Positions 31,888 to 53,631 of a stretch of 58,239 nt of DNA are shown here, one piece after another. Each line of letters begins with the position of its first letter. Position 1 is the stretch's first letter. Under the pieces are notes generated by a model. It worked only from the letters and a program-made list of their open reading frames with translations, ran no database searches and was not told the DNA's origin. Made by a program: the position numbers and the translations under genes. This DNA is from Candidatus Blackburnbacteria bacterium RIFCSPHIGHO2_01_FULL_43_15b (GTDB lineage: Bacteria > Patescibacteriota > Microgenomatia > UBA8517 > UBA10165): NCBI GenBank assembly GCA_001816385.1, contig MHBW01000031.1, positions 1 to 58,239 of the forward strand, read 5' to 3'.

Positions 31888-33780
31888 TTACCATGTAGTT
31901 CCGCGTTTTCCGGGTAAAGGAATATAAGGCGGTGCCATTGGAATTGTAACAGAACCACTAATCTTTAAGAATTCGTAATGCAAATGGTTTGGGTCGCTGC
32001 CAAAGACATTGCCTGTCGCTCCAACATTTCCAATTTGTGTGCCTGAAGAGACATTTTGGTTGTTTTGTACGCTTCTGGATATCATGTGGGCATAAATTAT
32101 TTCTACGGTTTTACCATTGCAGGAAGTTGTGATTCGCACACATTCTCCGTAAAGTGGGCTGTAGCAGTTAAAGGAAGCAATACCTCTGCTGGTTGCATAA
32201 ATAGGCGCACCCTGGATTCTTCCTTTGGGGCTATTGCCAATATCGACAGCTTCCGCGGTGCTGTGGGTTGACACTACCGTGTCGTTTGGTTCTGAGGTAA
32301 TGGTTCCATAAGTTGTTGCCCAGCCACTGGGACAATCGTCGGGCGGATTACCAACCCTGATTGAGGCGTTGTTGGCAGTGGTTTGAACTTCGGGTTGTTC
32401 GACAACTCGAGCGCTGACGCTAACAGCCAAAACAACATTTACATCTTCTAAATTTTCCAGCTTTAAATTGATTTGGTGAGTTTCTTCTGACCAATTCTCA
32501 CTTGCTAAAGTTTTTGTGCCATCTTTACCTGAAGCGGTGACGGTTGCAGAGATTGTAGGATCACCTTCGAAAGGTTTTTGCTTTGGCTTGACGGTAACAG
32601 TAAAAGTTACATCTTGAGGCAACTCTTCATTTTTAAGCGCGTTTTTAGAAGAGGAAATTTCGATGGATACATACTGGTTGCCTTTAGAAAGTACATCTCC
32701 AACACCTCCTGTACTGCTTAGTGCCGCGCGTTGGGTAAAAGTGGGACCTGTATTGTTAAACACCAGAGGAATGACAATAACTGCAATAAGTATTAAAGCC
32801 AAAACTCCACCCCCGATGGCGGCTGCTTCTCCACCCCCCCCAACAATTAGTAAAAGCCGTCTTGCCCCCATAGCCAGTCTGGTCAATCCTGAGCCAAGTC
32901 CGTGAGCCGCAGAAGAAATCAAACCGCGTCCCAAAATTGCCGATTGAGATGCAGCGTTTTGGGCTGCACTGCCCGCAAACTGTTTCAAAACAGGGGTAAG
33001 TTTGGGAGAAATAAACTGATTAAAGGGTTCTTGGGCGATGCGAACAATATTTGAGGAGGGGCTGATATTTAAATTAAAAACATGTTCCGGATAACCTACC
33101 CGGGGTTGTTCGTAATCATAGCTTTTTGGAGGTACAATGCGGACATTCTTTACTTGACCGGTTAGTGTTTCGACCTCTTCGATGATTCCTTTTCTAGAGC
33201 CATGTAATACTCTAACTGCCTCGGAATTAGCAAACTCGGGGTTTTGGGCAAGAAGTTGGTTTATGGCGTCTTCCAGTCTTTGATCGGAAGTACGCGACCT
33301 TGGGAAAAAGGGAATGGCATCTTTTAATCCATCGGCAAGTCGATCCTGCCAGCTTTTGGGACGGGTAACTAGCGCCAAAAGGTATTGTTCTTGGCTTATT
33401 GGTGACTTACGAGGTTGTTGGGTGGGTGTTGTCGCAGGTCTTATTGGGTGGGATATAGGTATAAATGAAACTTCAGTTTGGGTTTTTGGATTTTTCCCAC
33501 CAGCTGGTGTTTGTTTTAGAAGCGCTTGCCATTGTTCAAGTTGGGTAGTGGGGACAGGCTCTTTAAATTCTGTTTCGGTTTGCTGGTAAACCAACTTGTC
33601 TGAGTCGGGCGATGGCCAATGGGGGTGTTGTTGGGTTTTTAGGATTGGTGGAATTACCGTAGGTGGAGGCACACCATGTGGGAGATTTTGAGAACGAAAC
33701 AAAGTTCGGTTTACGCGATGTTGCAGTTCAGAAATGATATTGGAGAAGACGCCAAAAAAGCCACCAGGTTTTGTAGCCAT
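31888..33780 (-). CDS. membrane protein with a C-terminal M23 (LytM-type) peptidoglycan endopeptidase domain
   Basis: 630 aa with a Pro-rich N-terminal half and a central Gly-rich TM segment (LLLIVGGGGEAAAIGGGVLALILIAVIVIPLVF). M23 motifs are HSTAEAVDIG...IYAHM...GNVGATGNVFGSDPNHLHYEF. Confidence 0.75.
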   Translation of the reverse strand: MATKPGGFFGVFSNIISELQHRVNRTLFRSQNLPHGVPPPTVIPPILKTQQHPHWPSPDSDKLVYQQTETEFKEPVPTTQLEQWQALLKQTPAGGKNPKTQTEVSFIPISHPIRPATTPTQQPRKSPISQEQYLLALVTRPKSWQDRLADGLKDAIPFFPRSRTSDQRLEDAINQLLAQNPEFANSEAVRVLHGSRKGIIEEVETLTGQVKNVRIVPPKSYDYEQPRVGYPEHVFNLNISPSSNIVRIAQEPFNQFISPKLTPVLKQFAGSAAQNAASQSAILGRGLISSAAHGLGSGLTRLAMGARRLLLIVGGGGEAAAIGGGVLALILIAVIVIPLVFNNTGPTFTQRAALSSTGGVGDVLSKGNQYVSIEISSSKNALKNEELPQDVTFTVTVKPKQKPFEGDPTISATVTASGKDGTKTLASENWSEETHQINLKLENLEDVNVVLAVSVSARVVEQPEVQTTANNASIRVGNPPDDCPSGWATTYGTITSEPNDTVVSTHSTAEAVDIGNSPKGRIQGAPIYATSRGIASFNCYSPLYGECVRITTSCNGKTVEIIYAHMISRSVQNNQNVSSGTQIGNVGATGNVFGSDPNHLHYEFLKISGSVTIPMAPPYIPLPGKRGTTW

Positions 33781-33798: not shown

Positions 33799-35562
33799 TT
33801 ACTGAGCTTCTTCGACGCGAAGAATAGGACCCGGGTTGGAGTTGGACACTGGAGTTTGTTGTATCTCGGCCGGATTGGTTGTCACTAGTTTGTGTTCTTC
33901 GTCTGAGGCCACGACACGGATAGCGACATGGTTTGGTCCGGCAAAGAAAATTCCTTCGCCCACGTCTGCGGATAATAACAGTTGTTTTTCCCCTTGGGAA
34001 AGTTTGAAAACCTCACCAACTTTATCTATGGCCGTGGGGGACTGTTTCATTAATAGTTTTAAGGCTGAATTGGTAACTATTGCCTTACCAATATCTAAGG
34101 ACAGAAAGTCTTCAACGTCTTGGGTTATGGTGGTTAAACCTAAGTAATATTTGCGCGAGCGCTTGGCAATAGAGAAGAGGAATTGCGCGGTATCGGGGTA
34201 GCGCATCATATGCCACGCCTCATCAACGATTAAAATGCGCTTTTTCAAGTTTTCTTTAATGCGAGTCCAGATAAAATCCAAAACCACAAACATCGCAATG
34301 GGGCGCAAGGATTCTTCCAAATCACGCACAGAAAAAACTGTAAATGGATTTCTAAGACTTATGTTTGTGTGCTGGTCAAAAATTCCAGCAAAAGACCCCT
34401 TAACAAATTTTTCGACCCGATCGGCCAAAGAGCGTGAAACCGCATCCTCCATCCCAATAAGTGTTTTATAAAGATCTTCCATTAAAGGGGGAGTCTTGGT
34501 TTGGGTTGCCGGATCAGGAGTTATTCCTTTGGCTTTATATGTGGCAATCAGAGCCCTGTCCAAAACTGCCTGTTCGGATGGGTTTAATGTCCCCATGATT
34601 ACCCCAAACAGAGAATGCAGGGAAAGGATTTTTAAACCCAGTTGATTTTCCTCAGGATCAATGATATTTGATAGGTCAAAAGGATTTATTTTTGCCTGTG
34701 AGTTGAAGGAAAAAGAGATAAACTCGCCGCCGACCGCCTCGGCAAGTTTTTTATATTCCTGTTCGGGGTCAATAATAAATACTTCCGTCCCAAGCATTAA
34801 AGACCGCAGTGCTTCTAACTTCACGCTGTAGCTTTTGCCGGATCCAGAAGTTGCGAAAACGGTTGAATTGTAGTTCTCAAGAGAAAAGCGGTCAAAGATA
34901 ACCAAGGAATCATTATCTTCGTTGATGCCGTACAAAACTCCGCTGTCTGAGGAAAGCTCGGCGGAAGAAAAAGGAAAAGTTGTTGATAGGGAAGTAGTAT
35001 CCATGTTGCGAGTTATGGATAATCTGTCTTCCCCCAATGGCAGGCTTGTTAAAAATCCATCCTCCATGCGCAAGGTAGTTTTTTTAGCCACAACCAACAA
35101 AGACCCCAAGGTGGACTCAACCTGGGCGGTAATATTGTTTAACTCTTCTAAGTTTGAAGCGGGGATGGTGATGTAAAAAGAGAACTGGAAAAAGCGCTCC
35201 GCACCTTTTACCAATTGGTCTTGTAAATCGTGGGCGTCTTCAAGTTTTGCTTGAGTTGCCGGGTTTAACACCTTGCCGCGTTGTAAATCTGTGGACAGTT
35301 CTGCCTCCATCTCGGTTATCTTTCTTCGCAAATCATCAAGCACGGTTTTGCCGGCAACGGGATAGGTAAAGAAGGAGATATCAAGAGAGTGATCAAAGTT
35401 GATAATGGGATCAAGCCAGCCGGGATAAACGAATCTTGGGTAACCTGACACAAAAAGAGTTCTAAAATAGCGGTCATCAATTTTTATATGGTTAAAATCA
35501 ACCTCAATTTTTTGTGGGGCAATAATATCTTGAATGGATTTGGAGGACACAGGTTTGATCAT
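33799..35562 (-). CDS. virB4: VirB4/TraC-like type IV secretion ATPase (C-terminal ATPase body)
   Basis: 587 aa. Walker A is FATSGSGKSYSVK and Walker B is ILIVDEAWHMM. The downstream TTITQDVEDF is typical of the VirB4/DUF87 ATPase family. Confidence 0.8.
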   Translation of the reverse strand: MIKPVSSKSIQDIIAPQKIEVDFNHIKIDDRYFRTLFVSGYPRFVYPGWLDPIINFDHSLDISFFTYPVAGKTVLDDLRRKITEMEAELSTDLQRGKVLNPATQAKLEDAHDLQDQLVKGAERFFQFSFYITIPASNLEELNNITAQVESTLGSLLVVAKKTTLRMEDGFLTSLPLGEDRLSITRNMDTTSLSTTFPFSSAELSSDSGVLYGINEDNDSLVIFDRFSLENYNSTVFATSGSGKSYSVKLEALRSLMLGTEVFIIDPEQEYKKLAEAVGGEFISFSFNSQAKINPFDLSNIIDPEENQLGLKILSLHSLFGVIMGTLNPSEQAVLDRALIATYKAKGITPDPATQTKTPPLMEDLYKTLIGMEDAVSRSLADRVEKFVKGSFAGIFDQHTNISLRNPFTVFSVRDLEESLRPIAMFVVLDFIWTRIKENLKKRILIVDEAWHMMRYPDTAQFLFSIAKRSRKYYLGLTTITQDVEDFLSLDIGKAIVTNSALKLLMKQSPTAIDKVGEVFKLSQGEKQLLLSADVGEGIFFAGPNHVAIRVVASDEEHKLVTTNPAEIQQTPVSNSNPGPILRVEEAQ

Positions 35563-36197
35563 GTTTGCTTATATATTTTGAAAAACAATGTGGCTAACTC
35601 TTCGGTCACCAACTGATCCATCTTAATTCCCAAGCGACCTACTTGGCGAATTAAGTGATCGCGTTTTGGATAAAGGACCGTTTTGGTTTTTTTGATGATG
35701 TAACTTTTTGAATAAGGCAGATTTTTGGCCCTCTTAGTCTTAACCGAGGGAGTAAACAAATCGATAAAGTTGCTTGTAGTGATACCAAGTTCAAGGGGCG
35801 AGAAAGGTATAACTATGTAAAACTCTTTTTCCAAAACATTGCGCTTTTTGACCATTTGTGAGACAAAATTTTTATAAACGACCATAAGATTTTTTAATTG
35901 CGGATTGGTTTGGAGTTTTTCCTGAGTATCCAAAAATGCAAGGTAGCGCGTAATATCCTTCTTTTGAGAACGGACAAGGATTTGGATAGGAAAAGACAAA
36001 GAGTTAAGAAGCGCGGCGTAAGAAATTGTTACCGCCTCCTGTTCTTTTTCGGATAAAAGTGAGAAGTTAAGCGCTGTGGAGCGCAAAACCACAGCAGCAC
36101 CGCCATCTTTGGTTAATACCACGTCATCAACAATGTCTGCAACGATAATATGATGTTGGGAAGAAGCTTTAATTGGTTGAATGTTACTCATAATCAC
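35559..36197 (-). CDS. VirB4 N-terminal-domain-like protein (putative split VirB4)
   Basis: 212 aa whose stop overlaps the virB4 ATG by 4 nt. IIVADIVDDVVLTKDGGAAVVLRSTALNFSLLSEKEQEAVTISYAALLNSLSFPIQILV resembles the N-terminal CagE/TrbE/VirB4 region. Confidence 0.45.
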   Translation of the reverse strand: MIMSNIQPIKASSQHHIIVADIVDDVVLTKDGGAAVVLRSTALNFSLLSEKEQEAVTISYAALLNSLSFPIQILVRSQKKDITRYLAFLDTQEKLQTNPQLKNLMVVYKNFVSQMVKKRNVLEKEFYIVIPFSPLELGITTSNFIDLFTPSVKTKRAKNLPYSKSYIIKKTKTVLYPKRDHLIRQVGRLGIKMDQLVTEELATLFFKIYKQT

Positions 36198-36201: not shown

Positions 36202-37185
36202 TCACTTCGCCTTTATAAGAATCGGTGGAATAATACTACTACTGGCTGTTATTTTGATTGGGTCGAAAGCCAAGTCATCTTTCTCGGTTAAAATCTCATA
36301 CTCGCCGTCTTTAATAGGGGTAACGGTCATAAAATGACCAATTTTGTTGGTGCGCAGAGCTCTTACCGGAGTCCCCCCAACTTCTCTTATCTCAAGAATG
36401 GCTGACTCGACAATCTTGCCGTTGTTGGTTACCACCTGGCCGACAATAATATTAGGTTGCACGGGAGGATTGGGTGGTGCGGCCTGAAGCGCAAACTGCG
36501 CCTGAGAAACTTGTCGGTTTGAGGGTAAGGCAGTACCAAAAACCGGAGCCAAGGGGACAGTGTTGTATTCAACTTTAGTTTGAGGTTGAGGAAAATCCTT
36601 TTGCTGATGCTCAACCTTGATTGGCTGTGGGGGAGGAGCAAGTGGCGCGTTAGGGTCAATAGAAGCGGGAGGTTGTGGCGCAGATTGTTGAAACATCCCA
36701 AAAACTTTTTTAAAGAACCCTTTTTCCAATTCTTCGAGCCGGGTTACAACCTCTGCTTGGGGAACTGAGTGTAAATACTCTTCGGCTTTTTCCTGGCCTT
36801 GGGGAGCAATAACGGTTGGCGCGCTTACGCTATCAACAGCAAAGACATCTTCGGATGCCCCATTTTCCCAGGCATAAAGTGTTGGGGAATAAATTGCTTT
36901 AATAAAAGAGAAAAACCAAAAAGATAAAGGCCTTTCTTCAATGGGTAAAAAAGCCAGGGCCGCTCCTGAAATTGCAGCCAAAGCCACAATCGGCCATTTA
37001 ATTAAAGCTGGGAGGGGAGTAACGAAAATTAGAAAAGCAATTCCAACACCACCGGCCAGTTGTAAAAACTGTTTTAAGGTCATATCTCCTACCAGGCGGA
37101 ACTCGTAGGAGGAAATTTCTTGTGGTACCGGATGTTGTTCTAAAGGCATTTGCGACGTAGTCGCAAAACATAAAACATAATTCAT
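36202..37185 (-). CDS. PrgI/VirB3-like membrane protein with a C-terminal CarboxypepD_reg-like beta-sandwich
   Basis: 327-aa ORF (alternative ATG 37149). The N-terminus, SSYEFRLVGDMTLKQFLQLAGGVGIAFLIF... followed by a second TM helix, is typical of PrgI-family proteins. The middle is Pro-rich. The C-terminus reads IVGQVVTNNGKIVESAILEIRE...IKDGEYEI. Confidence 0.55.
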   Translation of the reverse strand: MNYVLCFATTSQMPLEQHPVPQEISSYEFRLVGDMTLKQFLQLAGGVGIAFLIFVTPLPALIKWPIVALAAISGAALAFLPIEERPLSFWFFSFIKAIYSPTLYAWENGASEDVFAVDSVSAPTVIAPQGQEKAEEYLHSVPQAEVVTRLEELEKGFFKKVFGMFQQSAPQPPASIDPNAPLAPPPQPIKVEHQQKDFPQPQTKVEYNTVPLAPVFGTALPSNRQVSQAQFALQAAPPNPPVQPNIIVGQVVTNNGKIVESAILEIREVGGTPVRALRTNKIGHFMTVTPIKDGEYEILTEKDDLAFDPIKITASSSIIPPILIKAK

Positions 37186-41650: not shown

Positions 41651-43072
41651 TTACCTACCTGGTTTTGTTGCGCCTGCTATAGTTCCCCAGATAGCTCTGC
41701 CCGTAAAACTTGTTGAGGCACGCGCTTGCCCTTCTGCGCCAGACGCGATAGGTGTCCTTATAAGATTTGTTGCTTCTCCTGGGGCAAATTGCATAGGTCT
41801 TCTGGCAAAGACGTTACGAATGGCTTGGGGGACTTGGTGCGCAATCATTAGCATTCCCAACCCAATAAGAAAAGGTATTGCTCCAGAAACTAAAGTACCC
41901 CCGAGCATGGGTGGCATCCACAGATTTTGACCTGCATGTCGTATCAAAATTTGACCTAAAATAAGTACAAAAGCTACAGCGGGGAAAATTAGGATGTTTA
42001 TAAAGAGATTTTTAAACCAGTCTCCCGCTCCAGGCAACCCGGGAATAACACCCATAGCTATTTGGAGGGGACCAAAAACAACCCCCAAGATAATGAATAT
42101 GTACGCTTTGAGTAATTCAAAAAACAATTTGAAGAGTAGGTAAAGAACGATTATTGAGAGTACTAATACTACGACTGCTACTCCAAGTCCCACTATTCCC
42201 AAGGCAGTTAATGCGGTAATACCCAAAAATAGAAGTGAGCCAGCAGCTACCAAGCCGCCTGCTACTAATCCAGCAACCCCAACGCCAGTACCACCGTCTC
42301 TTGCGCCAAACACAGTGCTGAATAAACGCCCTGTAAGTTGCCAAAAGCCGCCATTGATAAATTCAGTTTGTAGGTCTTGGGCAGATATATATTCGGGAAT
42401 AGAACCGAAAATTAAGGCCACGATTGCAATCATGACATACAACAAATCAACCATAAGGCCCGCGATGGCGTAAGAGAAAGTAACAAGAAGCAAAGCTATT
42501 ACAATTCTTGGAATAGCTGATTGGATAGTAAGTGTTGTCCGAGGGTCGAGCTTCATTCTAAACATAATTGCTAAACCGATAAAAATAAAGACAATCGCGA
42601 AAAAGGCATAAGCAAAGTTACGAAAAGCTTTCCAAACGGGTAGAATAGGCGAAAAGGCACCAAACCCAGTTCCTGTTGTTTGAGCGTAAGCTTGTTGGAC
42701 TGGGTTGATGTGATGCAAAATGTCCGCAAAGTAAGTTACGCCTGATGCTGGTGGGTTAGCATATAAACTGGCTACCATTGTTGTTGTGATGGGGATAGCT
42801 CCAGTTTTAAGCTCATTTGGACAGTTGTTGTTTTCTTTTACGCAGCCTGACAAAGCTATGTTTGCAGAGTTAATAAACCCAGCAAAATTCTGTTCGGAAA
42901 ATTTTTGAAGATTTTGTCCTCCGGCTCCCAACGCTTCCTGATGAGAATCAAGTGAATACTGAGCATAGGCAGCAGGGGCGGCGACTAAAGCGCAGAAAAG
43001 AATAAATGCAAAAAACTTTGGGTGGTGGGCAACTATACGAATGAGATTGCGAGCAGGCTTGAAGAGTTTCAT
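41651..43072 (-). CDS. VirB6/TrbL-like polytopic membrane protein
   Basis: 473 aa. It has an N-terminal signal/anchor, a roughly 100-aa extracytoplasmic segment and then at least 6 TM helices rich in Gly, Ala and Ile. Its size, topology and locus context fit VirB6/TrbL. Confidence 0.5.
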   Translation of the reverse strand: MKLFKPARNLIRIVAHHPKFFAFILFCALVAAPAAYAQYSLDSHQEALGAGGQNLQKFSEQNFAGFINSANIALSGCVKENNNCPNELKTGAIPITTTMVASLYANPPASGVTYFADILHHINPVQQAYAQTTGTGFGAFSPILPVWKAFRNFAYAFFAIVFIFIGLAIMFRMKLDPRTTLTIQSAIPRIVIALLLVTFSYAIAGLMVDLLYVMIAIVALIFGSIPEYISAQDLQTEFINGGFWQLTGRLFSTVFGARDGGTGVGVAGLVAGGLVAAGSLLFLGITALTALGIVGLGVAVVVLVLSIIVLYLLFKLFFELLKAYIFIILGVVFGPLQIAMGVIPGLPGAGDWFKNLFINILIFPAVAFVLILGQILIRHAGQNLWMPPMLGGTLVSGAIPFLIGLGMLMIAHQVPQAIRNVFARRPMQFAPGEATNLIRTPIASGAEGQARASTSFTGRAIWGTIAGATKPGR

Positions 43073-44565: not shown

Positions 44566-44591
44566 GGAGCGAAGCCGCGGACGAAAACTGG

Positions 44592-45002
44592 TTATTGTCT
44601 GGGGCCGGCGCCGCGGACGGCGCTCCATTGGATTGTTACATACCCTGGATCAACTCCATTTTGTCTCATCCAACTTTCCGCTAAGGCTTTATTATTTTCG
44701 TATGGCTGCCTCTGAATAGAGATTAAGAAATAGTCCTGGTCAGGGAAGTACTGGACTGTGAATTGCTCCGAACTGAAGGGCAGTTGAGAAATTAAACGCT
44801 GCTTGTTTTGCTGTAAAGCGTTTTGTTCCTGTATGGTTAGGGCTTTGGTTGGTGTTGGAAGAGGTGAGGTGGTTTGTGTAGCGGGAGCCTGGTTGTTGCT
44901 GGTAAACACATAGCCTGCTGCTAACAAGATAACAATCAACAAGACAGCAATTCTTTTTTTACTCCTGGTAAAAAACTGGCCCATGGCAGTAAGGTATTTC
45001 AT
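44592..45002 (-). CDS. small membrane-anchored protein, function unknown
   Basis: 136 aa with a single N-terminal TM helix. Its start overlaps the stop of the upstream gene by 4 nt. Confidence 0.55.
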   Translation of the reverse strand: MKYLTAMGQFFTRSKKRIAVLLIVILLAAGYVFTSNNQAPATQTTSPLPTPTKALTIQEQNALQQNKQRLISQLPFSSEQFTVQYFPDQDYFLISIQRQPYENNKALAESWMRQNGVDPGYVTIQWSAVRGAGPRQ

Positions 45003-46072
45003 TGTGATTGGGAAGAATATGACTTAAAAAGCCTCCATACGGTTCCACAGTAATCAGGCCCACACGCACGACTTGGGTTGCATGTTCCACAGTAGGCCCC
45101 AGCAACCTTTCTTATAGTTGGCTCGTCCCAAGCTGGTGTTGCTCCGGCGTCCCTTTTTATTTTAACAGCTGTGCCAACAAAAGCTGCAGCCACATTACAC
45201 CGATCGTCGGCAGTGATGGTCTTGTTCAATCCAAATTTTGATTGCAACACGCTTTGGATACCTACTAAACCACGAGAGGCGTTATCGTTTATTAAACTTC
45301 TCCATGTGGCGGCCTCGAATTGTGTTGCTCCACGGACGTCGTTGTTTGGACAACCCAATGACGGATCAGAACAGGTATTGTAGCAATACCCCTTTTTGAG
45401 GGTGTCGTATGGCGAACCAGCCCACCAATTGTCCGTGCTAAAAAACTTCACGTCCTCATCTGTGTAGCTAAAAGCTCCCGGGGCTTCGGTTTGGGAGATA
45501 GCCAATAAAAGAGGGGCTGGAACTTCAGTTGCTTCGGCTGCACTATTTATGATTCCCTTAAGATTTTCGGATTGCATATTGAAGGCTGAGGCGATTCCTG
45601 AGGTTATTCTGAAGGGATTAGCGTTGAATGGGTTTAGTGAGTCGATATATTCGTCAACTCCGCGGTTAAACTCGTTCTTTGTTTCTTCTGTTTCGGTCAG
45701 CTTAGGAGCATTTGTTCCATTGGTGTAAATAGTCCCAAAGAAAGGTATGCCGCCAGAAAAAAGCCTGGCGAAAACTTCATCAAACAGACCCCTGAGGGCA
45801 TTAAAGAAGTTTTCAAATTGTGCTTGGGGAGAGGGTGTGGGAGCATAGGCATTGGTTGAGTCACGGAAAAACTCCGCAGATTTTCCGAAGTCAGCAATGG
45901 TTGGAGAATCTCCTTTGTAAGGAATTAATTTCTGGGCGTTTTCAGGGCTAAATAGCTGCTGGCCCTTTTCGGTTCCGTAAGAATCGGGAGTAGTATCAGC
46001 AGCGTGCGTGGTTTGTGTGAATAGAATCAAAAAGAAGGGTAGGAGTGATAAGAATGATAAGAAGCGGATCAT
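44999..46072 (-). CDS. secreted lytic-transglycosylase-like (VirB1-like) protein
   Basis: 357 aa with a signal peptide (LLPFFLILFTQTTHA). LLLAISQTEAPGAF...VRGATQFEAATW resembles the catalytic Glu and G-x-x-Q motifs of SLT domains. The C-terminal half is Cys-rich. Confidence 0.5.
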   Translation of the reverse strand: MIRFLSFLSLLPFFLILFTQTTHAADTTPDSYGTEKGQQLFSPENAQKLIPYKGDSPTIADFGKSAEFFRDSTNAYAPTPSPQAQFENFFNALRGLFDEVFARLFSGGIPFFGTIYTNGTNAPKLTETEETKNEFNRGVDEYIDSLNPFNANPFRITSGIASAFNMQSENLKGIINSAAEATEVPAPLLLAISQTEAPGAFSYTDEDVKFFSTDNWWAGSPYDTLKKGYCYNTCSDPSLGCPNNDVRGATQFEAATWRSLINDNASRGLVGIQSVLQSKFGLNKTITADDRCNVAAAFVGTAVKIKRDAGATPAWDEPTIRKVAGAYCGTCNPSRACGPDYCGTVWRLFKSYSSQSQ

Positions 46073-46088
46073 GAAGAGTTTCTAATTT

Positions 46089-46143
46089 AAAAATTGTAAT
46101 TTGATAATTGATTGAAAATTGTAAATTGAAAATTAGAAATTAC
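46089..46143. repeat. 7-bp periodic AT-rich repeat (NAAATTG units)
   Basis: aaaattg taatttg ataattg attgaaaattg taaattg aaaatta gaaatta. The related string ggaaattgaaaattggaaattggaaattga occurs inside tsaD at 17435-17464. Confidence 0.7.
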
Positions 46144-46150
46144 TCCATTC

Positions 46151-46489
46151 CTATGGAGTCGTTACCTTAAATTGAGTTACCTGCACTCCTGTTACAGCTT
46201 GAATAACCAATAAAACCGCAAATGCCAAAACCAAAACAACTAGCCCCGCAATGGCTGCTGTTAGAGTATGTTTTGCTGATTCTACTGCCTTTGGATCAGA
46301 TCCTGAGGTTAGATATTTAAAACCTCCTATCAAAAACGTAACGAAAACTACCACACCGGAAAGAGCCAAAACGACATCAACGACGTTCCCAAAAGCGCAC
46401 TCCAAACCAGCAATTGTTGCGACATCCGACGCATCAACTGTGTCGCTTATCTTTGTGCCAACACATGCAGTTCCCAACCAGCTTGCCAT
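46151..46489 (-). CDS. VirB2/TrbC-like pilin-module protein, paralog 1
   Basis: 112 aa with two TM helices flanking the loop FLIGGFKYLTSGSDPKAVESAKHTLTAAIAGLVVLV. Confidence 0.55.
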   Translation of the reverse strand: MASWLGTACVGTKISDTVDASDVATIAGLECAFGNVVDVVLALSGVVVFVTFLIGGFKYLTSGSDPKAVESAKHTLTAAIAGLVVLVLAFAVLLVIQAVTGVQVTQFKVTTP

Positions 46490-46584
46490 ATTGCAAGTGT
46501 ATCAGAAAAGCAGCGATGGGGCAAAATGCGAAAGGGATTAGGATAGATACTAACCACTATCACCAATCCCTATCACTTTTGCTG

Positions 46585-46983
46585 TCAGACACCAACTCTG
46601 CTAATCGTAAGATTGAACAAGTCGACGTCGAACAATATCTTTATAAGTTGAGCAATTGCCCAAGCCGAAAAGACTACAACCAAACCAACCAAAGCTGACG
46701 TTATTTGTTGGCGAGCTTCTTCGGTTTTGTTTTTATCTCCACCTGAGGTGATCCATTTAATACCACCTAATACCAACCAGAAGAAGAACAAAACGGCTGC
46801 AACAACGACTAAAATTTTGATAGCTGTTGAGACGATTGCTCCAATTGTCAGTTCGGCAACAGTTGTGGATGGAGCACCTGTACCTATATTAATTTTTGCT
46901 TCGCCAGCTGCTGCTACAGGTGTAGCGGACAACGCCAAAGCTAAGCTAGAAGTCCAAAGAGAATTTAAAGTTTGTTTTGTCAT
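46585..46983 (-). CDS. VirB2/TrbC-like pilin-module protein, paralog 2
   Basis: 132 aa with a signal peptide. The loop is LVLGGIKWITSGGDKNKTEEARQQITSALVGLVVVF. Confidence 0.55.
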   Translation of the reverse strand: MTKQTLNSLWTSSLALALSATPVAAAGEAKINIGTGAPSTTVAELTIGAIVSTAIKILVVVAAVLFFFWLVLGGIKWITSGGDKNKTEEARQQITSALVGLVVVFSAWAIAQLIKILFDVDLFNLTISRVGV

Positions 46984-47010
46984 GTTTTCACCCCCTCGCC
47001 GTATGTGTGC

Positions 47011-47349
47011 TTATATTTTAATCGCGCCAAGATCAATTTGTAAAATGTTGACGCCAAAGACAGCTTCGATAAGCTTCAAGATTGCAAAAAGAGAAAGCAT
47101 AACGACAACCCCAAGAAGCGCATGAACTATGCTGTTGCGGGCCTTTTCGAGGGCCTTTGCGTCTCCTGTTGATGTAATCCACTGAAGCCCTCCTATTAAA
47201 AAGTAAACAATAAAAAGCACAAACCCGACGACAAAGAAAGTTTTAAGAATAACTGCTATAACGGCACTGAAACCGCTAACTCCTGCTAACCCAGAGGTGG
47301 GATTTAACTTGGAAGGCAATAATGGATTTGAAACGTCTGCTAAATACAT
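47011..47349 (-). CDS. VirB2/TrbC-like pilin-module protein, paralog 3
   Basis: 112 aa. The loop is FLIGGLQWITSTGDAKALEKARNSIVHALLGVVVML. Confidence 0.55.
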   Translation of the reverse strand: MYLADVSNPLLPSKLNPTSGLAGVSGFSAVIAVILKTFFVVGFVLFIVYFLIGGLQWITSTGDAKALEKARNSIVHALLGVVVMLSLFAILKLIEAVFGVNILQIDLGAIKI

Positions 47350-47362
47350 AATTTTGTGTTTG

Positions 47363-47734
47363 TCATTTAATGCTCAAATTGTTAATGAAATCGTCAATTT
47401 TCAAAATATCGATGCCCATCAAAAAACCGATTACAGATATAAACACTAAAGCGATAAAAACAACCACTAAACCAATAACAGCATTTGTAATTCCCTGCCT
47501 TGCGTCTGCTGCACCTTTGGGATCTCCGCCTGCGGTCATTAGGCTATAACCACCAATAACAATTTGGACAATAAACCACAAGATTGCCCCAACAGTCATA
47601 AACCCAATAATGTTGGACAACAGCTTTTCCAAAAGACCCCCTGCACCCTCCGTGAGGCTGGTAGGGTCACCCAAAGGACCAAAGCCCTTAATTTCCCCCA
47701 AACTTTCTGCTACTAAATTTGTCGAATTTGTCAT
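47363..47734 (-). CDS. VirB2/TrbC-like pilin-module protein, paralog 4
   Basis: 123 aa. The loop is IVIGGYSLMTAGGDPKGAADARQGITNAVIGLVVVF. Confidence 0.55.
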   Translation of the reverse strand: MTNSTNLVAESLGEIKGFGPLGDPTSLTEGAGGLLEKLLSNIIGFMTVGAILWFIVQIVIGGYSLMTAGGDPKGAADARQGITNAVIGLVVVFIALVFISVIGFLMGIDILKIDDFINNLSIK

Positions 47735-47753
47735 ATTTGTCGAATTTAACCCA

Positions 47754-48269
47754 TTAGGGAGTTATTAACTGCGGTTTAAGTATAGCCGTTGCATCTCCAA
47801 AGAATATTTGTCCAATGATTGCTGCAAACAGGAAGGACGCAGCGATTATAACTACACCTACCAGGCTTTGCCAAATTCTTGCCCAGGCAGCACCGACTGC
47901 TTTTGCATCTCCTCCCGCTTGAATAAATTGATACCCAGCAATTATAAAGTTAAACAAGGCCCAAACTCCACCAGCAATGACTAAAAGTCTTAAAATTGCG
48001 CTTATCAGATTTCCCAAACCAGAAACTTCAGGAGCAACTCTGGCGGGGGGGGTAATTTTACCAAACAAAGCTCCTGATCCGCCAGTGGAGGTGTAACAAA
48101 CAAAGGTGGGTTGGTCGCCTACAGTTATATTATTACAGGCACCTGGACATCTAGACATTCGACACTCAGCCTCACTGTCGAAAGTTTTGCCTGCTTGAGC
48201 AGAAGCTGGAGATGCACTAAAAAAGACAAGTGATAAAAAAAGGGTCAAAGCAAAGATGAGATTTTTCAT
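47754..48269 (-). CDS. VirB2/TrbC-like pilin-module protein, paralog 5, with a Cys-rich N-terminal insert
   Basis: 171 aa with a signal peptide (SASPASAQA) and the insert CRMSRCPGACNNITVGDQPTFVC. The loop is FIIAGYQFIQAGGDAKAVGAAWARIWQSLVGVVIIA. Confidence 0.55.
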   Translation of the reverse strand: MKNLIFALTLFLSLVFFSASPASAQAGKTFDSEAECRMSRCPGACNNITVGDQPTFVCYTSTGGSGALFGKITPPARVAPEVSGLGNLISAILRLLVIAGGVWALFNFIIAGYQFIQAGGDAKAVGAAWARIWQSLVGVVIIAASFLFAAIIGQIFFGDATAILKPQLITP

Positions 48270-48270
48270 A

Positions 48271-48681
48271 TTAAAATATTTTAATATTGGTCAACGCTTC
48301 AATAAGTTGAATTATCCAATATGAGACGAAGATAATCAAGAAACCGGTAATTGCCGAGAAAATAACCTTCTTCCCACGGCCAATGGCATCCCTGTCATCA
48401 GAGCCTGCGCCACGGATATATTCAAACCCGCCCCACAGGAAAAAGATGAAGACTATAACGCCGGCGATAAGATAAAGATTCCCGGCTACGGCTGAGACCA
48501 AACCTCCAATATTGGCTAATTCCTTAACAGGAGAGTTATATTCTTTGCCAATATCGACAGCTAAGGCAGAGGTGACTAGTAACTTGTGACTAGCGACTAG
48601 AGTAAGGAGGGTTGTAATTGTGTATTTTGCGAAACTAGCTACCACGTTACGAGTTGACGAGTTACTTTTTATTATTTTCAC
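48271..48681 (-). CDS. VirB2/TrbC-like pilin-module protein, paralog 6
   Basis: 136 aa. The loop is FLWGGFEYIRGAGSDDRDAIGRGKKVIFSAITGFLIIF. Confidence 0.5.
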   Translation of the reverse strand: MKIIKSNSSTRNVVASFAKYTITTLLTLVASHKLLVTSALAVDIGKEYNSPVKELANIGGLVSAVAGNLYLIAGVIVFIFFLWGGFEYIRGAGSDDRDAIGRGKKVIFSAITGFLIIFVSYWIIQLIEALTNIKIF

Positions 48682-48725
48682 AGTTCTAAGTGTATCAGGC
48701 AGAAGCGTAGCTTTGCAATTACCCT

Positions 48726-48806
48726 GTCATTCTGAGGCGTAGCCGAAGAATCTCTCGACTCGTTCGCGGAGTTTACGGTGAGTTTGTCGAATCTGCTCAG
48801 TGTGAC
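48726..48806. repeat. hairpin-family element (GTCAT...GTGAC) between a pilin gene and uppS
   Basis: gtcattctgaggcgtagccgaagaatc is followed by tcgactcgttcgcggag...gtcga and ends in ctcagtgtgac. The 61-aa ORF at 48727-48912 is a spurious translation of this element. Confidence 0.65.
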
Positions 48807-48820
48807 ACGGGATTGTGGGG

Positions 48821-49600
48821 TTATCCGCGGGTGACAAGTCGTGTTGCCTTTTTAACGTAATCAGTAAATTTCCCTTTCCCAAACCGTCTTGATCTTTTTG
48901 CAAAATTGGCAAGCGCCAGATCTAATTTCTTTGGGTTAAAGTCAGGCCAGAGAGTTTTTGTAAAGTAAAGTTCTGCATAAACCGCCTGCCAGGGGAAATA
49001 CCCGGAAAGCCTTTTGTCTCCGCCGGTTCTGATTATTAAATCCGGGTCGGGTATGCCGGCGGTATCCAAATAACCTGAAAATTCTTCCTCAGTTATGGGG
49101 GTTTCTGCAGAGCGCTGATGTGTTTGGACTTTGTCCAAGAGACGGGAGATAGCCCGCAAAAGTTCATCGCGCCCTCCGTAGTTGAGGGCAAAAGAAACGG
49201 TTATCTTTTTGTTATCTCTGGTTTTTTCAACAATCTTTTTGGCTAGAGTTGCAATATCTTCCGGAAACCAATCAATGTTGCCGATTATTTTTACCCGTAC
49301 TCCCAATTCTGCAAGCTCTAAAAGGTTAGTTTTTAACGCGTCCCGGAAGATTTTAAAAAGTCCTTGAAGCTCGTAAGTATCCCGTTTTTGATTTTCTGTA
49401 GAAAATGCCCAAAAAGTTAAATATCCGAGTCCGCGCTTTATAGCATGTTCGACAATCGGCTTGATGGTTTTTTCAGCAGCGACCCTGTGACCATCAATTG
49501 CGCCAACACCGTGTTTGGCAGCCCAACGGCGGTTGCCGTCCATAATTATTGCCACATGATTAGGAACACCAGTGGAAGAGTTATTTGCGATTTTTGCCAT
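48821..49600 (-). CDS. uppS: undecaprenyl diphosphate synthase (isoprenyl transferase)
   Basis: 259 aa. Motifs present: HVAIIMDGNRRWA, LTFWAFSTEN and IRTGGDKRLSGYFPWQ. Confidence 0.9.
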   Translation of the reverse strand: MAKIANNSSTGVPNHVAIIMDGNRRWAAKHGVGAIDGHRVAAEKTIKPIVEHAIKRGLGYLTFWAFSTENQKRDTYELQGLFKIFRDALKTNLLELAELGVRVKIIGNIDWFPEDIATLAKKIVEKTRDNKKITVSFALNYGGRDELLRAISRLLDKVQTHQRSAETPITEEEFSGYLDTAGIPDPDLIIRTGGDKRLSGYFPWQAVYAELYFTKTLWPDFNPKKLDLALANFAKRSRRFGKGKFTDYVKKATRLVTRG

Positions 49601-49694
49601 ATACCAGGTGGGTGGATTTTAACACAGGTCGAGTTCTTTGAACAATTGCGACTTGACGATCTTCCTAGTGAGTCGCGAGCTTACGAGTTACCGA

Positions 49695-50012
49695 TTAGAA
49701 CAGGTTTCTAAACTGGCTAATTCCTAATATCAGTCCAAGTATTTGCACTATCCAAAAAGCGGCGAAAATAATTACAAAACCAATGACTGCTCGGGTTATC
49801 CTGTCTTTTCCGGCGGCGGTGGCTTTTGGATCACCATGGGACATCATGATTCCAAACCCTCCCCAGATGAAGTAAAGAAACAAAACTATACCAGCCAGAC
49901 CAAAAACATAAGGTACAAAAGCGCTGACGATGCCGCCCAAAGTATTCAGGTTTTGGTTATAGCCCGTCTCGTTTAAATTTTGCTGTAAAACTCCAAAATC
50001 TATTGCTGCCAT
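49695..50012 (-). CDS. VirB2/TrbC-like pilin-module protein, paralog 7
   Basis: 105 aa. The loop is FIWGGFGIMMSHGDPKATAAGKDRITRAVIGFVIIF. Confidence 0.55.
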   Translation of the reverse strand: MAAIDFGVLQQNLNETGYNQNLNTLGGIVSAFVPYVFGLAGIVLFLYFIWGGFGIMMSHGDPKATAAGKDRITRAVIGFVIIFAAFWIVQILGLILGISQFRNLF

Positions 50013-50058
50013 AAGAAAATTATTAACTTGCTATCTTGTTAAAACACAACTTCTCCCC

Positions 50059-50114
50059 GTCATACTGAACTTGATTCAGTATCTACATAGATTCCGTGTC
50101 AGGCACGGAATGAC
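50059..50114. repeat. paired hairpin element (GTCAT...ATGAC)
   Basis: gtcatactgaa-cttga-ttcagtatc at 50059-50083 and gattccgtg-tcagg-cacggaatgac at 50090-50114. It has the same flanks and the same CTTGA loop as 8988-9012, but a different, compensated stem. Confidence 0.8.
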
Positions 50115-50141
50115 AGCAAGAGGTAGGTTTTGAAACGAGAT

Positions 50142-51209
50142 CTACCCGAATCCTGGTAATCCTAATATATCTACTCCAATTAATTTTAACAAGAAGACGG
50201 AAAAAATTATCAAAATTAAACCGGATATCGCTGCGTTTAGGAGCTCCTTCCCACCTTGAATTTTATCCGGGTTGCCTGTTGAGCTCATAATTTGGAATCC
50301 TGCGAAGATTATTAACAAAAATGCAACCCCTCCAGCTATTCCCAAGGCCCACTTCAGAAACCACCCAACGAATTGATTGGTGTCTCGTATGGGTATGCAT
50401 CCTAGGGCTGTTTGCAAACTTGTTTTGCTTGAGTCGCACCAAGTAGGTTCGAATGCTGAGGTCGGCGGAGACTCCTCTCCAGGTTTGTAAGTAAAGGTGC
50501 TTTGATCTCCTCTTGTTTTGCCAACACTAAACTCACGAGAGCAAAGAACCTCCGCACTAATATCATCTGTTCTGCGTGCTTTAACTACAATGGTGTATTG
50601 ACCGTCTGATTGGAAATTGCCGGCGGTCGCCTCATATGTATCACCCTTTTGGCCACCACTGATTATTTGGCCTTTGTCAGGAGAAATTTCTGAGAATAAA
50701 CCGAACCTAGCTACAGCGATATCTGTAAGTTGAGAAAAATTTGAGAAAACAAAGTTAACCTGCTGGTCTACTCCTGGCTGCTTAGGGGTTTGGTCGACTC
50801 GGCATCCCTCATATGACGGATATACCTTATAATCAATTCGACAAACCTCTTCACTCTCACTATTAGCTTTAGTTATCTTAATTTGCTTATCTCCTACTGA
50901 TGTTTCATTTCCCTCCCCACCAACACTAAAAGTGAGGTCGCTACCTTCTACTTTGGGGGTCAGGGGCATTGAGCTGTCACGAGCATTCAGTTTAAGTAAA
51001 TACCAATTACCCCCACGAACAAAGTAAATGCTATAGTCTTGAGTAGGGTTAAATTTGTATCCGGAGACGGTGAATTTGGCTGGTCTGTCAGCGTAAAGTG
51101 TTTTAGGGTTGGTGGTTACCGAGCAACGATCAAATGCATAAGCTGGGCGAGGAACAATGGTGGCTGGTGCAAGGAGTGCAACCGAAATTAAAAAAAATAT
51201 TTTTTTCAT
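50142..51209 (-). CDS. large secreted ectodomain fused to a C-terminal VirB2/TrbC-like pilin module (paralog 8)
   Basis: The start is set at MKKIFFLISVALLAPA (ATG 51209), giving a signal peptide. A roughly 280-aa beta-rich domain follows. The C-terminus is FLLIIFAGFQIMSSTGNPDKIQGGKELLNAAISGLILIIF. Confidence 0.55.
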   Translation of the reverse strand: MKKIFFLISVALLAPATIVPRPAYAFDRCSVTTNPKTLYADRPAKFTVSGYKFNPTQDYSIYFVRGGNWYLLKLNARDSSMPLTPKVEGSDLTFSVGGEGNETSVGDKQIKITKANSESEEVCRIDYKVYPSYEGCRVDQTPKQPGVDQQVNFVFSNFSQLTDIAVARFGLFSEISPDKGQIISGGQKGDTYEATAGNFQSDGQYTIVVKARRTDDISAEVLCSREFSVGKTRGDQSTFTYKPGEESPPTSAFEPTWCDSSKTSLQTALGCIPIRDTNQFVGWFLKWALGIAGGVAFLLIIFAGFQIMSSTGNPDKIQGGKELLNAAISGLILIIFSVFLLKLIGVDILGLPGFG

Positions 51210-51583: not shown

Positions 51584-51585
51584 CC

Positions 51586-51810: not shown

Positions 51811-51847
51811 TTTCCAACGTGTACTTAAGATCGCTGCTGGTATACTA

Positions 51848-53590: not shown

Positions 53591-53631
53591 TTGTACCGAA
53601 GGCTTGTAGTGGTGTAGAATAACACAAACCT

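Follow-up and report, generated by a model that had tools for sequence, protein, structure and literature searches.

An Ordered Array of Eight Pilin-like Genes near a Monoderm-Type T4SS Core in Candidatus Blackburnbacteria

Tandem arrays of 'VirB2-like' pilin genes, comprising 2–11 members, have been described in Patescibacteria, where they are abundant in Microgenomatia (Quinonero-Coronel et al. 2025, PMC12102498). The paralogs of these arrays share ~25% identity and are encoded near dnaA; pilin genes were found near virB4 in 1135 assemblies, and host-range versatility was suggested as the benefit of the arrays (PMC12102498). In the Saccharibacterium Southlakia epibionticum, the whole pilin series is essential, implying non-redundancy of its members (Wang et al. 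2023, PMC10633639).

The DNA stretch analyzed here (58,239 nucleotides, hereinafter the window) belongs to a Candidatus Blackburnbacteria bacterium, being the origin-proximal part of its chromosome, and harbors an array of this kind. The host is an ultrasmall, uncultured, groundwater-type bacterium (Microgenomates, Patescibacteria/CPR).

The Array and Its Shared Module

Eight ORFs predicted to share one module are all present on the minus strand at 46151–51209; they are numbered p1–p8 from the gene at 50142 down to that at 46151:

50142..51209, minus strand: p1, pilin-like module with a predicted signal peptide and two predicted Ig-like ectodomains (PF18895, 27.1 bits)
50052..50121, minus strand: twin-hairpin (Y-shaped) element in the p1–p2 spacer (dG −28.9 kcal/mol, z −4.3)
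49695..50012, minus strand: p2, pilin-like, 105 aa, no signal peptide (PF18895, 44.5 bits; NF045849, 36.5 bits)
48821..49600, minus strand: uppS, undecaprenyl-diphosphate synthase (PF01255, 236 bits)
48271..48681, minus strand: p3, pilin-like, 136 aa (PF18895, 24.5 bits; positional orthogroup p3)
47754..48269, minus strand: p4, pilin-like, 171 aa, predicted signal peptide and 4-Cys insert (PF18895, 20.5 bits)
47363..47734, minus strand: p5, pilin-like, 123 aa (PF18895, 33.7 bits; orthogroup p5)
47011..47349, minus strand: p6, pilin-like, 112 aa (PF18895, 24.5 bits; orthogroup p6)
46585..46983, minus strand: p7, pilin-like, 132 aa, predicted signal peptide (PF18895, 43.1 bits)
46151..46489, minus strand: p8, pilin-like, 112 aa (PF18895, 37.5 bits; orthogroup p8)

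Each of the eight proteins is a two-helix hairpin: the alignment reveals in all of them a TM helix, a loop with the consensus GG-x-x-(aromatic/aliphatic)-x-(T/S)-x-G-(D/N)-P/x-K...A, and a second TM helix, at a pairwise identity of 21–29% (global alignment). Both helices are strongly hydrophobic and, as modelled, ~33–35 residues long with a polar tip; the AF2 model of p2 is a helical hairpin with helices at 25–57 and 62–96. The Pfam family PF18895 (T4SS_pilin) matches all eight proteins (E 1.7e-11 to 5e-4), with five exceeding its gathering score of 26.6 bits. The proposed assignment of the module to T4SS pilins is thus supported by membership in the family that Pfam names so and by the synteny between the array and genuine T4SS core genes. 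An HMM built of the eight modules detected no ninth copy in the window, the next best ORF having E = 0.38.

The N-termini diverge, as had been noticed from the sequence, and comprise signal-peptide-like starts, the 4-Cys insert of p4 and the ~255 aa ectodomain of p1. Signal-peptide-like N-termini are discernible by eye in the translations of p7, p4, p3 and p1; a simple hydropathy scan flagged an N-terminal hydrophobic segment in p4 and p1 only.

The array was also thought to be interrupted by uppS and by hairpin repeat elements. The former does reside between p2 and p3, and its homologs occur in 29 related loci, directly downstream of p2 in those compared. Regarding the latter, a strong twin hairpin was confirmed at ~50052–50121 (0 of 200 shuffles were as stable), but no significant structure was found at 48726 (z 0.2). 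The twin hairpin has no Rfam match and is missing in the closest relative, where the p1–p2 gap is 2 nt. The 12-nt motif shared by the sites at 48726 and 50059 is at chance level, with at least two matches in 13 of 100 shuffles.

Conservation of the Array Positions and Divergence of p1

Eight copies, initially regarded as an oddity, turned out to be the norm: exactly eight genes were found in 27 of 39 complete (full-flank) loci from other Microgenomates species. Loci with fewer genes are mostly located on short or cut contigs, or show a 2+6 split extending beyond the 10-kb flank; in loci with more than eight, the extras are mostly added p1 copies. The order p1–p8 is kept in all loci, while the number and order of p2–p8 barely vary and no recent duplicates occur among them. 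Across 45 loci, the best cross-locus match falls at the same array position in 86–100% of cases, with a same-position identity of 47–62% vs. 21–29% between the window's own paralogs (global alignment) and an average of 32% between paralogs within a locus (over BLAST-reported pairs). Each position is hallmarked by its own consensus signature, e.g., AWxxIWQ in helix 2 for orthogroup p4. Most array genes display a dN/dS of 0.07–0.25 and are under purifying selection; when close strains are compared, the array region shows mosaicism due to recombination. Judging by these comparisons, the array represents a fixed, ordered set of eight ancient orthogroups and not recent variable copies, which is a new finding.

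The p1 gene likely starts with the ATG at 51209, which is preceded by AAGAGGG and fits the ortholog lengths; the frame is extendable to a TTG at 51320. Its ~255 aa ectodomain was modelled as two Ig-like beta-sandwiches (residues 30–130 and 137–230; AF2 pLDDT 85), connected through a neck with the conserved TAxGCIP to hairpin helices at 277–343. The top Foldseek matches were InvD, intimin D0–D1, invasin and titin Ig tandems; together with the conservation pattern, this fold makes p1 a candidate adhesin-like protein. Compared with the closest relative, the C-terminal 100 aa (the module) of p1 are 87% identical and the ectodomain 35%, and the copy number of p1 varies from 1 to 4 across loci. Rapid divergence and copy-number change concentrate in p1, which is likewise new.

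Antigenic or host-range variation by VirB2 paralogs has been proposed for Bartonella and Anaplasma; for Patescibacteria, a use of this kind was suggested in the 2025 survey (PMC12102498). The low identity of the window's paralogs, the hypervariable p1 ectodomain with its changing copy number and the recombination mosaic could all be expected if the array encoded alternative, interchangeable major pilins. Such an arrangement is nevertheless improbable and disfavoured, considering the stable positional orthogroups, the near-constancy of p2–p8 and the low dN/dS of most genes; the essentiality of the whole series in S. epibionticum (PMC10633639) also argues against redundancy. Hence, the diversification under host or phage pressure suggested by the original prediction does not fit p2–p8 but does fit the ectodomain and copy number of p1. 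Since it is p1 that diversifies in these respects, a heteropolymeric structure or alternative tips remain the better, plausible part of that guess.

The T4SS Core and a Possible Heteromeric Assembly

The genes of a monoderm-type T4SS core (PrgI/VirB3, TrsD, VirB4) reside 9–12 kb from the array. They and their neighbors are as follows:

44592..46072, minus strand: two co-oriented genes after p8, encoding a Cys-rich secreted protein (357 aa) and a protein with one TM segment (136 aa)
41651..43072, minus strand: 7-TM membrane protein (seven hydrophobic segments)
36202..37185, minus strand: PrgI-family (VirB3-like) protein (PF12666, 28.9 bits vs. a cutoff of 27)
35559..36197, minus strand: TrsD-like protein, corresponding to a split-off N-terminal portion of VirB4 (NF041427, E 2.5e-6; the N-terminus of Mbov_0397 VirB4 is matched as well)
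33799..35562, minus strand: VirB4-like T4SS ATPase (NF045971 CD1110 family, 389 bits, cutoff 325; Mbov_0397, 278.7 bits; PF19044 and PF12846 matches)
31888..33780, minus strand: M23 peptidoglycan endopeptidase with 2 TM segments (PF01551, 54.9 bits)

The 7-TM protein, lacking family or PDB matches, is a candidate VirB6-like channel subunit, and the M23 endopeptidase is a possible wall-remodelling partner by virtue of its adjacency. The gene pair after p8 occurs at this place in Blackburnbacteria loci only and has no Pfam, NCBIfam or PDB match. No T4CP or relaxase was found among the window ORFs.

The distance between the array and VirB4 (10.6 kb), with unrelated Fic and toxin–antitoxin genes in between, might suggest that their neighborhood is coincidental and that the hairpins form a generic family of double-TM anchors having nothing to do with T4SS, the more so as VirB2/TrbC similarity is at noise level and Foldseek has little power to discriminate so simple a fold. 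This explanation is disfavoured and seems very improbable: the array, the 7-TM protein (homolog downstream of the array in 44 loci) and PrgI–TrsD–VirB4 follow the same order in related genomes, where the flank reaches PrgI in 15 loci, TrsD in 4 and VirB4 in 2. Consistent homology to a family encoded in conjugation modules of Mycoplasma ICEs and the recurrence of pilin genes near virB4 in the published survey speak against it as well.

The best explanation, to which a probability of about one half can be ascribed, is that the eight genes encode eight non-interchangeable subunits of one heteromeric T4SS-associated surface assembly of a monoderm Patescibacterium. The hairpins would be inserted into the membrane N-out and C-out, with the SGGDPK...A(K/R) turn, which is polar and conserved, facing the cytoplasm and the signal peptide, where present, cleaved; the VirB4 machine would then extract them and assemble a filament or conduit of heteromeric composition. 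Its body would consist of one abundant subunit, for which p7 is the best candidate because it combines the strongest ribosome-binding site of the array (the best Shine–Dalgarno, upstream AGGGGGTG) with the most conserved module (62% cross-species identity, joint highest). For the other small subunits, the minor pilins of type IV pilus and type II secretion systems suggest, by analogy, that they may be minor, initiating or adaptor ones. The p1 protein would be the host-contact subunit displaying its two Ig-like domains outside, which would explain why p1 alone is hypervariable and sometimes multi-copy. The structure would serve epibiotic contact or exchange with a host cell rather than conjugation, since the coupling protein and relaxase are absent. 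To our knowledge, a filament built by this system has never been observed in a Patescibacterium, which speaks against such an assembly.

Comparison with Known Systems

Similarity to the classical TrbC/VirB2 pilins (PF04956), on which the original prediction was staked, did not emerge: only p2 matches the profile (22.6 bits vs. the cutoff of 27.9), the profile matches 10 among 90 family members, a share not exceeding that obtained with a noise family, and hhalign against VirB2 yielded a probability of 0.4–0.6%. Foldseek returned no significant match for the hairpin, a fold too simple to discriminate; the best pilin-like match, non-significant, was the Aeropyrum conjugation pilus (TM 0.62). Homology to VirB2/TrbC is undetectable here by sequence, profile or fold. 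The resemblance to these pilins (A. tumefaciens T-pilin, PDB 8cue, 8fai) includes small size, two hydrophobic helices with a short polar/basic loop, a cleavable signal peptide in some copies (predicted here) and an encoding together with VirB4 and a VirB3-type machine. In contrast, the window encodes eight types instead of one and lacks VirB5 and, because the host is monoderm, an outer-membrane complex.

The clearest curated relative, as suggested by profile matches, is the Mycoplasma ICE protein Mbov_0395/MMCAP2_0565 (NF045849, 'pilin-like conjugal transfer protein'), a two-TM hairpin of ~80 aa. Its model matches 82 of 90 family members (best E 1.6e-11) and is aligned over its full length (positions 4–76 of 80), although none of the eight window proteins reaches the curated equivalog threshold (40 bits; highest score 36.5). 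By locus-tag numbering alone, Mbov_0395 is two tags from the VirB4 Mbov_0397, which also matches the window's VirB4. In Mycoplasma, the system is a conjugative, mobile element possessing a T4CP, whereas that of the window is chromosomal and devoid of one.

We know of no conjugative pilus in the wall-less Mycoplasma. The CDS13 and CDS15 proteins of Mycoplasma ICEs were reviewed as having VirB3-like features (PMC12857230). Along with the NF045849 matches, the Mbov_0397 similarity of VirB4 and TrsD, the undetectable VirB2 similarity and the hydrophobicity of both helices, this makes it possible, if less probable, that the hairpins never leave the membrane. They would then be integral translocon subunits that surround VirB4 and the 7-TM protein as a VirB3-/CDS15-like hetero-oligomeric ring or platform, with p1 as a hairpin-anchored membrane adhesin. 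However, a separate PrgI/VirB3-family protein is already encoded, and Mbov_0395 is equated with CDS15 tentatively, by locus-tag order. A resemblance to conjugative pilins is discernible in the long modelled helices and their polar tip, the best pilin-like match, though non-significant, being that to Aeropyrum, and eight distinct conserved subunits with an ectodomain-type expansion better fit a surface organelle.

For the surface assembly favoured here, the minor-pilin sets known from type IV pili and type II secretion (e.g., GspH-I-J-K, FimU-PilVWX) offer a functional analogy only. In both cases, an ordered operon encodes several paralogs of one structural module that are divergent but individually conserved. 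In minor-pilin sets, the fibre is built from one paralog, while the others serve to prime or cap it and may bear an adhesin. The window proteins are unrelated to them in fold, lack a class III signal peptide and an N-terminal methylated helix, and are accompanied by an assembly ATPase of another family.

With the published patescibacterial arrays, the array of the window shares the PF18895 family, the Microgenomatia lineage, a paralog identity of ~25%, a tandem arrangement that a non-pilin gene may interrupt, nearby MPF-FATA-like VirB4, TrsD and PrgI, the proximity of dnaA/dnaN and the lack of a relaxase or T4CP. There is no essential difference: it is one more instance of the array kind already published, here resolved into eight fixed, ordered orthogroups.

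The eight-gene array and the family of its shared module

Eight minus-strand ORFs in 46151-51209 share a C-terminal module, as the original prediction had it, and all of them are matched by the Pfam family PF18895 (T4SS_pilin). In transcription order, the genes are as follows:

Pilin-like genes of the array
p1: 50142-51209, minus strand, pilin-like module and an ectodomain of ~255 residues
p2: 49695-50012, minus strand, pilin-like module
p3: 48271-48681, minus strand, pilin-like module
p4: 47754-48269, minus strand, pilin-like module and a 4-Cys insert
p5: 47363-47734, minus strand, pilin-like module
p6: 47011-47349, minus strand, pilin-like module
p7: 46585-46983, minus strand, pilin-like module
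p8: 46151-46489, minus strand, pilin-like module

The module spans ~90 residues at the C-terminus of all eight proteins and comprises two hydrophobic helices joined by a turn of the motif GG-x-x-(Y/W/I)-(L/I/M)-(T/S)-x-G-(D/N)-P/x-K...A-(K/R); two hydrophobic segments were found in each of p1-p8 by a hydropathy scan. The paralogs of the window are 21-29% identical (pairwise to the first sequence, global alignment), and an HMM of the eight modules revealed no ninth copy among the 650 six-frame ORFs of the window (next best E = 0.38). The predicted divergence of the N-termini and the interruption of the array by uppS were likewise borne out: signal-peptide-like starts are discernible by eye in the translations of p1, p3, p4, and p7 (in a simple hydropathy scan, p1 and p4 alone show a hydrophobic segment at the N-terminus), p4 harbors the 4-Cys insert and p1 the large ectodomain, and uppS (PF01255, 236 bits) is situated between p2 and p3. 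Type IV (T4P) pilins were considered and ruled out from the sequence alone, the class III leader of the G/FTLIE type being present in none of the eight proteins.

Judged by the whole-protein score, for which the gathering threshold of PF18895 is 26.6 bits, five of the eight proteins belong to this family (p1, 27.1; p2, 44.5; p5, 33.7; p7, 43.1; p8, 37.5 bits), and the other three fall slightly below the threshold (p3, 24.5; p4, 20.5; p6, 24.5 bits; E 3e-5 to 5e-4). The family is also matched by all 90 members of an alignment of the module, which takes in orthologs of the three sub-threshold proteins. The two-helix hairpin architecture characteristic of PF18895 is apparent from the hydrophobic segments of all eight proteins and from the helix-turn-helix predicted by AlphaFold2 for p1 and p2; in the p2 model (90-sequence alignment, mean pLDDT 75.6), the helices span residues 25-57 and 62-96 and are joined by the turn S-H-G-D.

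The claim that these proteins are T4SS pilins stood as far as the PF18895 family and the genomic context are concerned, and homology to the classical VirB2/TrbC pilins found support in none of the tests run. With the TrbC/VirB2 profile PF04956 (gathering threshold 27.9 bits), p2 alone gave a match, a sub-threshold one (22.6 bits, E 1.2e-4); in the family alignment, the profile is found at E<=0.01 in 10 of the 90 members, fewer than for the noise family WLS-like_TM (13 of 90), i.e., at the noise level of membrane proteins. Comparison of the family alignment by hhalign with Agrobacterium tumefaciens VirB2 (sequence from PDB 8cue) and with a narrow alignment of five VirB2 sequences from plasmid records yielded probabilities of 0.6% and 0.45%. 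The family HMM detected no pilin among all PDB sequences, the best match being a transmembrane segment of a viral glycoprotein (E 0.02). Foldseek returned nothing at E<=0.001 for the p2 model against the PDB, helical hairpins carrying little signal; the conjugation pilus of Aeropyrum (8dfu; TM 0.62, E = 5) ranked 12th. Overall, the sequence and model comparisons do not demonstrably identify the module as VirB2.

A relative was detectable elsewhere. NF045849, the NCBIfam model of the Mbov_0395 pilin-like conjugal transfer protein from Mycoplasma ICEs, matches 82 of the 90 family members at E<=0.01 (best E 1.6e-11, over the full model length); its equivalog cutoff of 40 bits is reached by none of the eight proteins (p2, 36.5 bits; others, 9.9-27.5 bits; p3, no match). 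Mbov_0397 VirB4, from the same Mycoplasma ICE family, is matched by both VirB4 and TrsD of the window. Hence, a relative of the module can be detected within a T4SS of monoderm or wall-less bacteria (MPF-FATA type), and this link bears on the suggestion that the pilin might have been co-opted from other T4SS classes (PMC12102498). The reading of the shared segment as a double-TM anchor unrelated to T4SS is disfavoured by this Mycoplasma ICE homology together with the T4SS synteny described below.

With 86,468 representatives (50% identity, E<=1e-3), the family is very large, and many of its top matches feature 2-17 tandem pilin modules in a single polypeptide, e.g., P0252 with six modules separated by short linkers. 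Such proteins could be natural "polypilins" made by concatenation, or else products of read-through in gene calling.

Ordered orthogroups and the mode of evolution

Related loci were collected with the conserved C-terminus of p1, taking one genome per GTDB species, and the scan gave 80 loci, which belong to Woesebacteria, Gottesmanbacteria, Blackburnbacteria, and further Microgenomates. Among the 39 loci with full 10-kb flanks, 27 contain exactly eight module-bearing ORFs by HMM count, the others containing 2-11. Positional orthology was assessed in 45 loci with eight co-oriented genes by finding the best BLAST match of each module in every other locus: from p1 to p8, the match occupied the same position in 100, 97, 96, 96, 94, 86, 100, and 97% of the comparisons. 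Module identity at the same position averages 47-62%, being highest for p1 and p7, vs. the above 21-29% for the paralogs of the window in global alignment and 32% on average for the BLAST-reported pairs within a locus. Each array position is hallmarked by a consensus signature of its own, e.g., TAxGCI...GNPE in p1, AGYxFxSAGxDxKK...AWxxIWQ in p4, and GGIxWIxSGGDKxxTExARxQITAALVGLVIVFAAWAI in p7.

The p1-to-p8 order is also kept in all loci deviating from eight genes. Those with fewer genes represent mostly short or cut contigs, or a 2+6 split extending beyond the 10-kb flank; those with more carry mostly added copies of p1 (four in L047, three in L062, and two each in L052, L066, L070, and L085), p5 or p7 being only rarely duplicated. 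Homologs of uppS occur in 29 loci and, in those compared, come immediately after p2 on its downstream side, mostly in the opposite orientation; eight genes with a central uppS are found as well in the two nearest Blackburnbacteria genomes. In the HYU80 Blackburnbacteria genome (L001 10320-10709, also L002 and L003), a gene of the bAvd/23S-rRNA-IVP four-helix-bundle family, which includes the accessory protein of diversity-generating retroelements, is inserted between p2 and uppS; no reverse transcriptase was found within 10 kb. Many of the related MAG records (L007, L011, L012, etc.) are titled "uncultured Gammaproteobacteria bacterium"; their content is clearly that of Microgenomates, and the title looks like a placeholder given at submission.

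Comparison with L004, the closest relative, revealed protein identities of 79-98% for p2-p8 and dN/dS of 0.07-0.25 for p2, p4, p5, p6, and p7; the values for p3 (0.49) and p8 (0.71) both come from very few substitutions. For p1, overall protein identity amounts to 50%; the ectodomain reaches 35%, and the last 100 residues at the C-terminus reach 87%. The array region is a recombination mosaic: the block 43116-46489, encompassing p8, the genes for a 357-aa and a 136-aa protein, an HTH gene, and a Fic gene, is ~99% identical to that of L004 (dS ~0.01-0.03), and it is flanked by p1-p7 with dS of 0.2-1.9 and by a 7-TM protein with 63% identity.

What emerges is the pattern of eight old parts, each constrained individually, and of a single surface domain that evolves fast. 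These identities and dN/dS values do not fit a gene family that was amplified recently and is diversifying, and the original suggestion of diversification under host or phage pressure is disfavoured for p2-p8 by the fixed positional orthogroups and the low dN/dS of most genes. Antigenic variation, in which the copies would serve as interchangeable alternatives, is disfavoured on the same grounds, namely the ordered orthogroups across loci and the evolutionary rates relative to L004. The Microgenomates array is a fixed eight-part kit, with purifying selection on most genes and one variable adhesin-like member, and not a pool of variable alternatives; this moves the working model away from antigenic variation and towards a heteromeric machine of defined parts.

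The variable member was modelled with AlphaFold2 from a 63-sequence alignment (pLDDT 85). The predicted p1 structure consists of a signal peptide, two beta-sandwiches (residues 30-130 and 137-230), a short beta-hairpin carrying the near-invariant TAxGCIP motif, and the helices 277-309 and 314-343. Foldseek related the ectodomain to tandem Ig-like domains, the best matches including the bacterial adhesins InvD, intimin D0-D1, and invasin (E 4e-7 to 7e-5).

The original prediction had placed hairpin repeat elements at 48726 and 50059. One does fold: the p1-p2 spacer is filled by a 70-nt twin hairpin with a closing outer stem (50052-50121, minus strand; dG -28.9 kcal/mol, z -4.3, a stability reached by 0 of 200 shuffles). 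At 48726, the predicted folding does not surpass that of shuffled sequences, and a hairpin repeat family was rejected, as the shared 12-mer is at chance frequency and just one of the two sites folds. The p1-p2 gap of L004 measures 2 nt, so the 50052-50121 element has the appearance of a recently inserted sequence or of an RNA element specific to the strain; Rfam yielded nothing at the gathering threshold in the whole window or at E<=1 in the array, this element included. Scanning of the array returned 11 promoter-like sites (shuffle expectation 11.4) and 13 terminator-like ones (expectation 7.3, a modest excess), with no interpretable site among them. A strong Shine-Dalgarno sequence was found, besides p1, only for p7 (AGGGGGTG). 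The spacer between p8 and the gene for the 357-aa protein contains two copies of an AT-rich tandem and inverted repeat, TTAAAAATTGTAATTTGATAATT (46079-46139), which may represent an operator or promoter region.

Genomic setting and published arrays

The window covers the chromosome origin region: at 26-31 kb, jag, yidC, and rnpA diverge from dnaA and dnaN, and the housekeeping genes leuS, tgt, tsaD, L25, and bacA are located upstream; no tRNAs were found in the window. Directly after dnaN come an M23 peptidase, VirB4, a TrsD-like protein, and a PrgI/VirB3-family protein, constituting a monoderm-type T4SS core; VirB4 scores 389 bits with the NCBIfam CD1110-family model (cutoff 325) and 279 bits with Mycoplasma Mbov_0397 VirB4. 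The coupling protein (VirD4/T4CP) and the relaxase, whose presence at the locus marks a conjugative (DNA-transfer) T4SS, were both absent among the ORFs scanned with Pfam and NCBIfam in the 58-kb window.

The interval between the core and the array houses unannotatable proteins, toxin-antitoxin genes, the Fic protein, and the 7-TM protein (41651-43072, minus strand; 473 aa, seven hydrophobic segments). The latter and the secreted 357-aa protein have no sequence match in Pfam, NCBIfam, or the PDB; as a guess, the former could be a VirB6-like subunit, VirB6 being reported as "scarce" in Microgenomatia (PMC12102498), and the latter could be wall-hydrolase-like. In the related loci, a 7-TM homolog lies downstream of the array in 44 cases, followed by PrgI, TrsD, and VirB4 where the flank extends far enough. 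On the other side, a divergent cluster upstream of p1 (51785-56204, plus strand) encodes a SpoIID-domain protein, a 198-aa membrane protein, and a 584-aa protein; it is retained beside p1 in 67-74 related loci, a linkage as tight as that of the T4SS core, and it may be a peptidoglycan-remodelling partner.

Toxin-antitoxin-type genes also mark the array borders and differ between relatives: HicB/HicA and DUF6922/AbiEii in the window (51308-51810 and 37370-38218), Mut7-C/DUF433 in L004 (6748-7333), and HepT/MNT in L001 (15852-16671). Farther away, a 1734-aa protein (2349-7553, plus strand) with three DUF5667 repeats and no other annotation is probably a giant surface protein.

Arrays of this kind have been documented by Quinonero-Coronel et al. 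(2025), who applied PF18895 and PF04956 to 3,035 genomes of Patescibacteria (PMC12102498) and defined an array as two or more PF18895/VirB2-like genes, tandemly arranged or with one non-pilin gene between them, in a genome with a VirB4 of the Patescibacteria clade. The mean within-array identity was 25%; the T4SS were related to the monoderm MPF-FATA type, mostly lacked a relaxase, and often resided near dnaA and dnaN (PMC12102498). The window holds eight such genes with the single uppS interruption, together with VirB4, and its closest proteins come from MAGs of Candidatus Blackburnbacteria in the Microgenomates group of Patescibacteria/CPR. It matches every element of the published description and is a further example of an already known kind of array; the phenomenon was published previously, and no new kind of system is added here.

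A proposed heteromeric assembly and its relation to known systems

The role of the T4SS in the sole genetically tractable Patescibacterium, where it is essential, is described as completely unknown (PMC11665869), and in Southlakia epibionticum, the series of pilin genes within the T4SS cluster proved essential by Tn-seq (Wang et al. 2023, PMC10633639). In reviews, the pilin array is singled out as what is most unexpected in a Gram-positive-type T4SS, and a pilus is mentioned as no more than a possibility (PMC12857230). We propose, with a probability of about 0.5, that the eight hairpin proteins are assembled by the T4SS machine into one heteromeric surface structure with p7 as an abundant and p1 as a host-contact subunit. 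The hairpins would adopt an N-out, loop-in, C-out topology in the membrane, from which they would be built into the structure by the VirB4-TrsD-PrgI machine, perhaps on a VirB6-like platform formed by the 7-TM protein. Candidate for the abundant subunit is p7, in view of its strong Shine-Dalgarno sequence and of module conservation that is joint highest with p1; p1 is the candidate host-contact subunit. For the remaining six, the minor pilins of T4P and T2SS offer an analogy: they might serve as minor, priming, or adaptor subunits.

In the main rival reading, which we consider possible, if rather unlikely, the proteins stay in the membrane throughout, as components of the translocon. In the Mycoplasma ICE, CDS13 and CDS15 have been described as having VirB3-like features (review, PMC12857230), and Mbov_0395 would correspond to CDS15 from the locus-tag order.

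The heteromeric surface structure can be tentatively elaborated into a more specific and somewhat doubtful version, an obligately heteromeric filament or conduit built from VirB2-like hairpins in a single-membrane cell, where p7 would form the shaft, p2-p6 and p8 would be minor or adaptor subunits, and p1, with its Ig-like domains, would serve as an exchangeable host-recognition tip, all descending from a small monoderm or Mycoplasma-type T4SS subunit and not from a diderm loan. The ordered orthogroups, the variation confined to p1, the Mycoplasma ICE link, and the conserved 7-TM partner offer testable refinements of the open problem, with concrete targets in p7 as the candidate shaft, p1 as the candidate determinant of host specificity, and the 7-TM protein as the candidate VirB6. 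If true, such a heteromeric pilus architecture would be without counterpart among known T4SS: these use one pilin together with VirB5, whereas the structure proposed for Microgenomates would employ eight types of hairpin protein.
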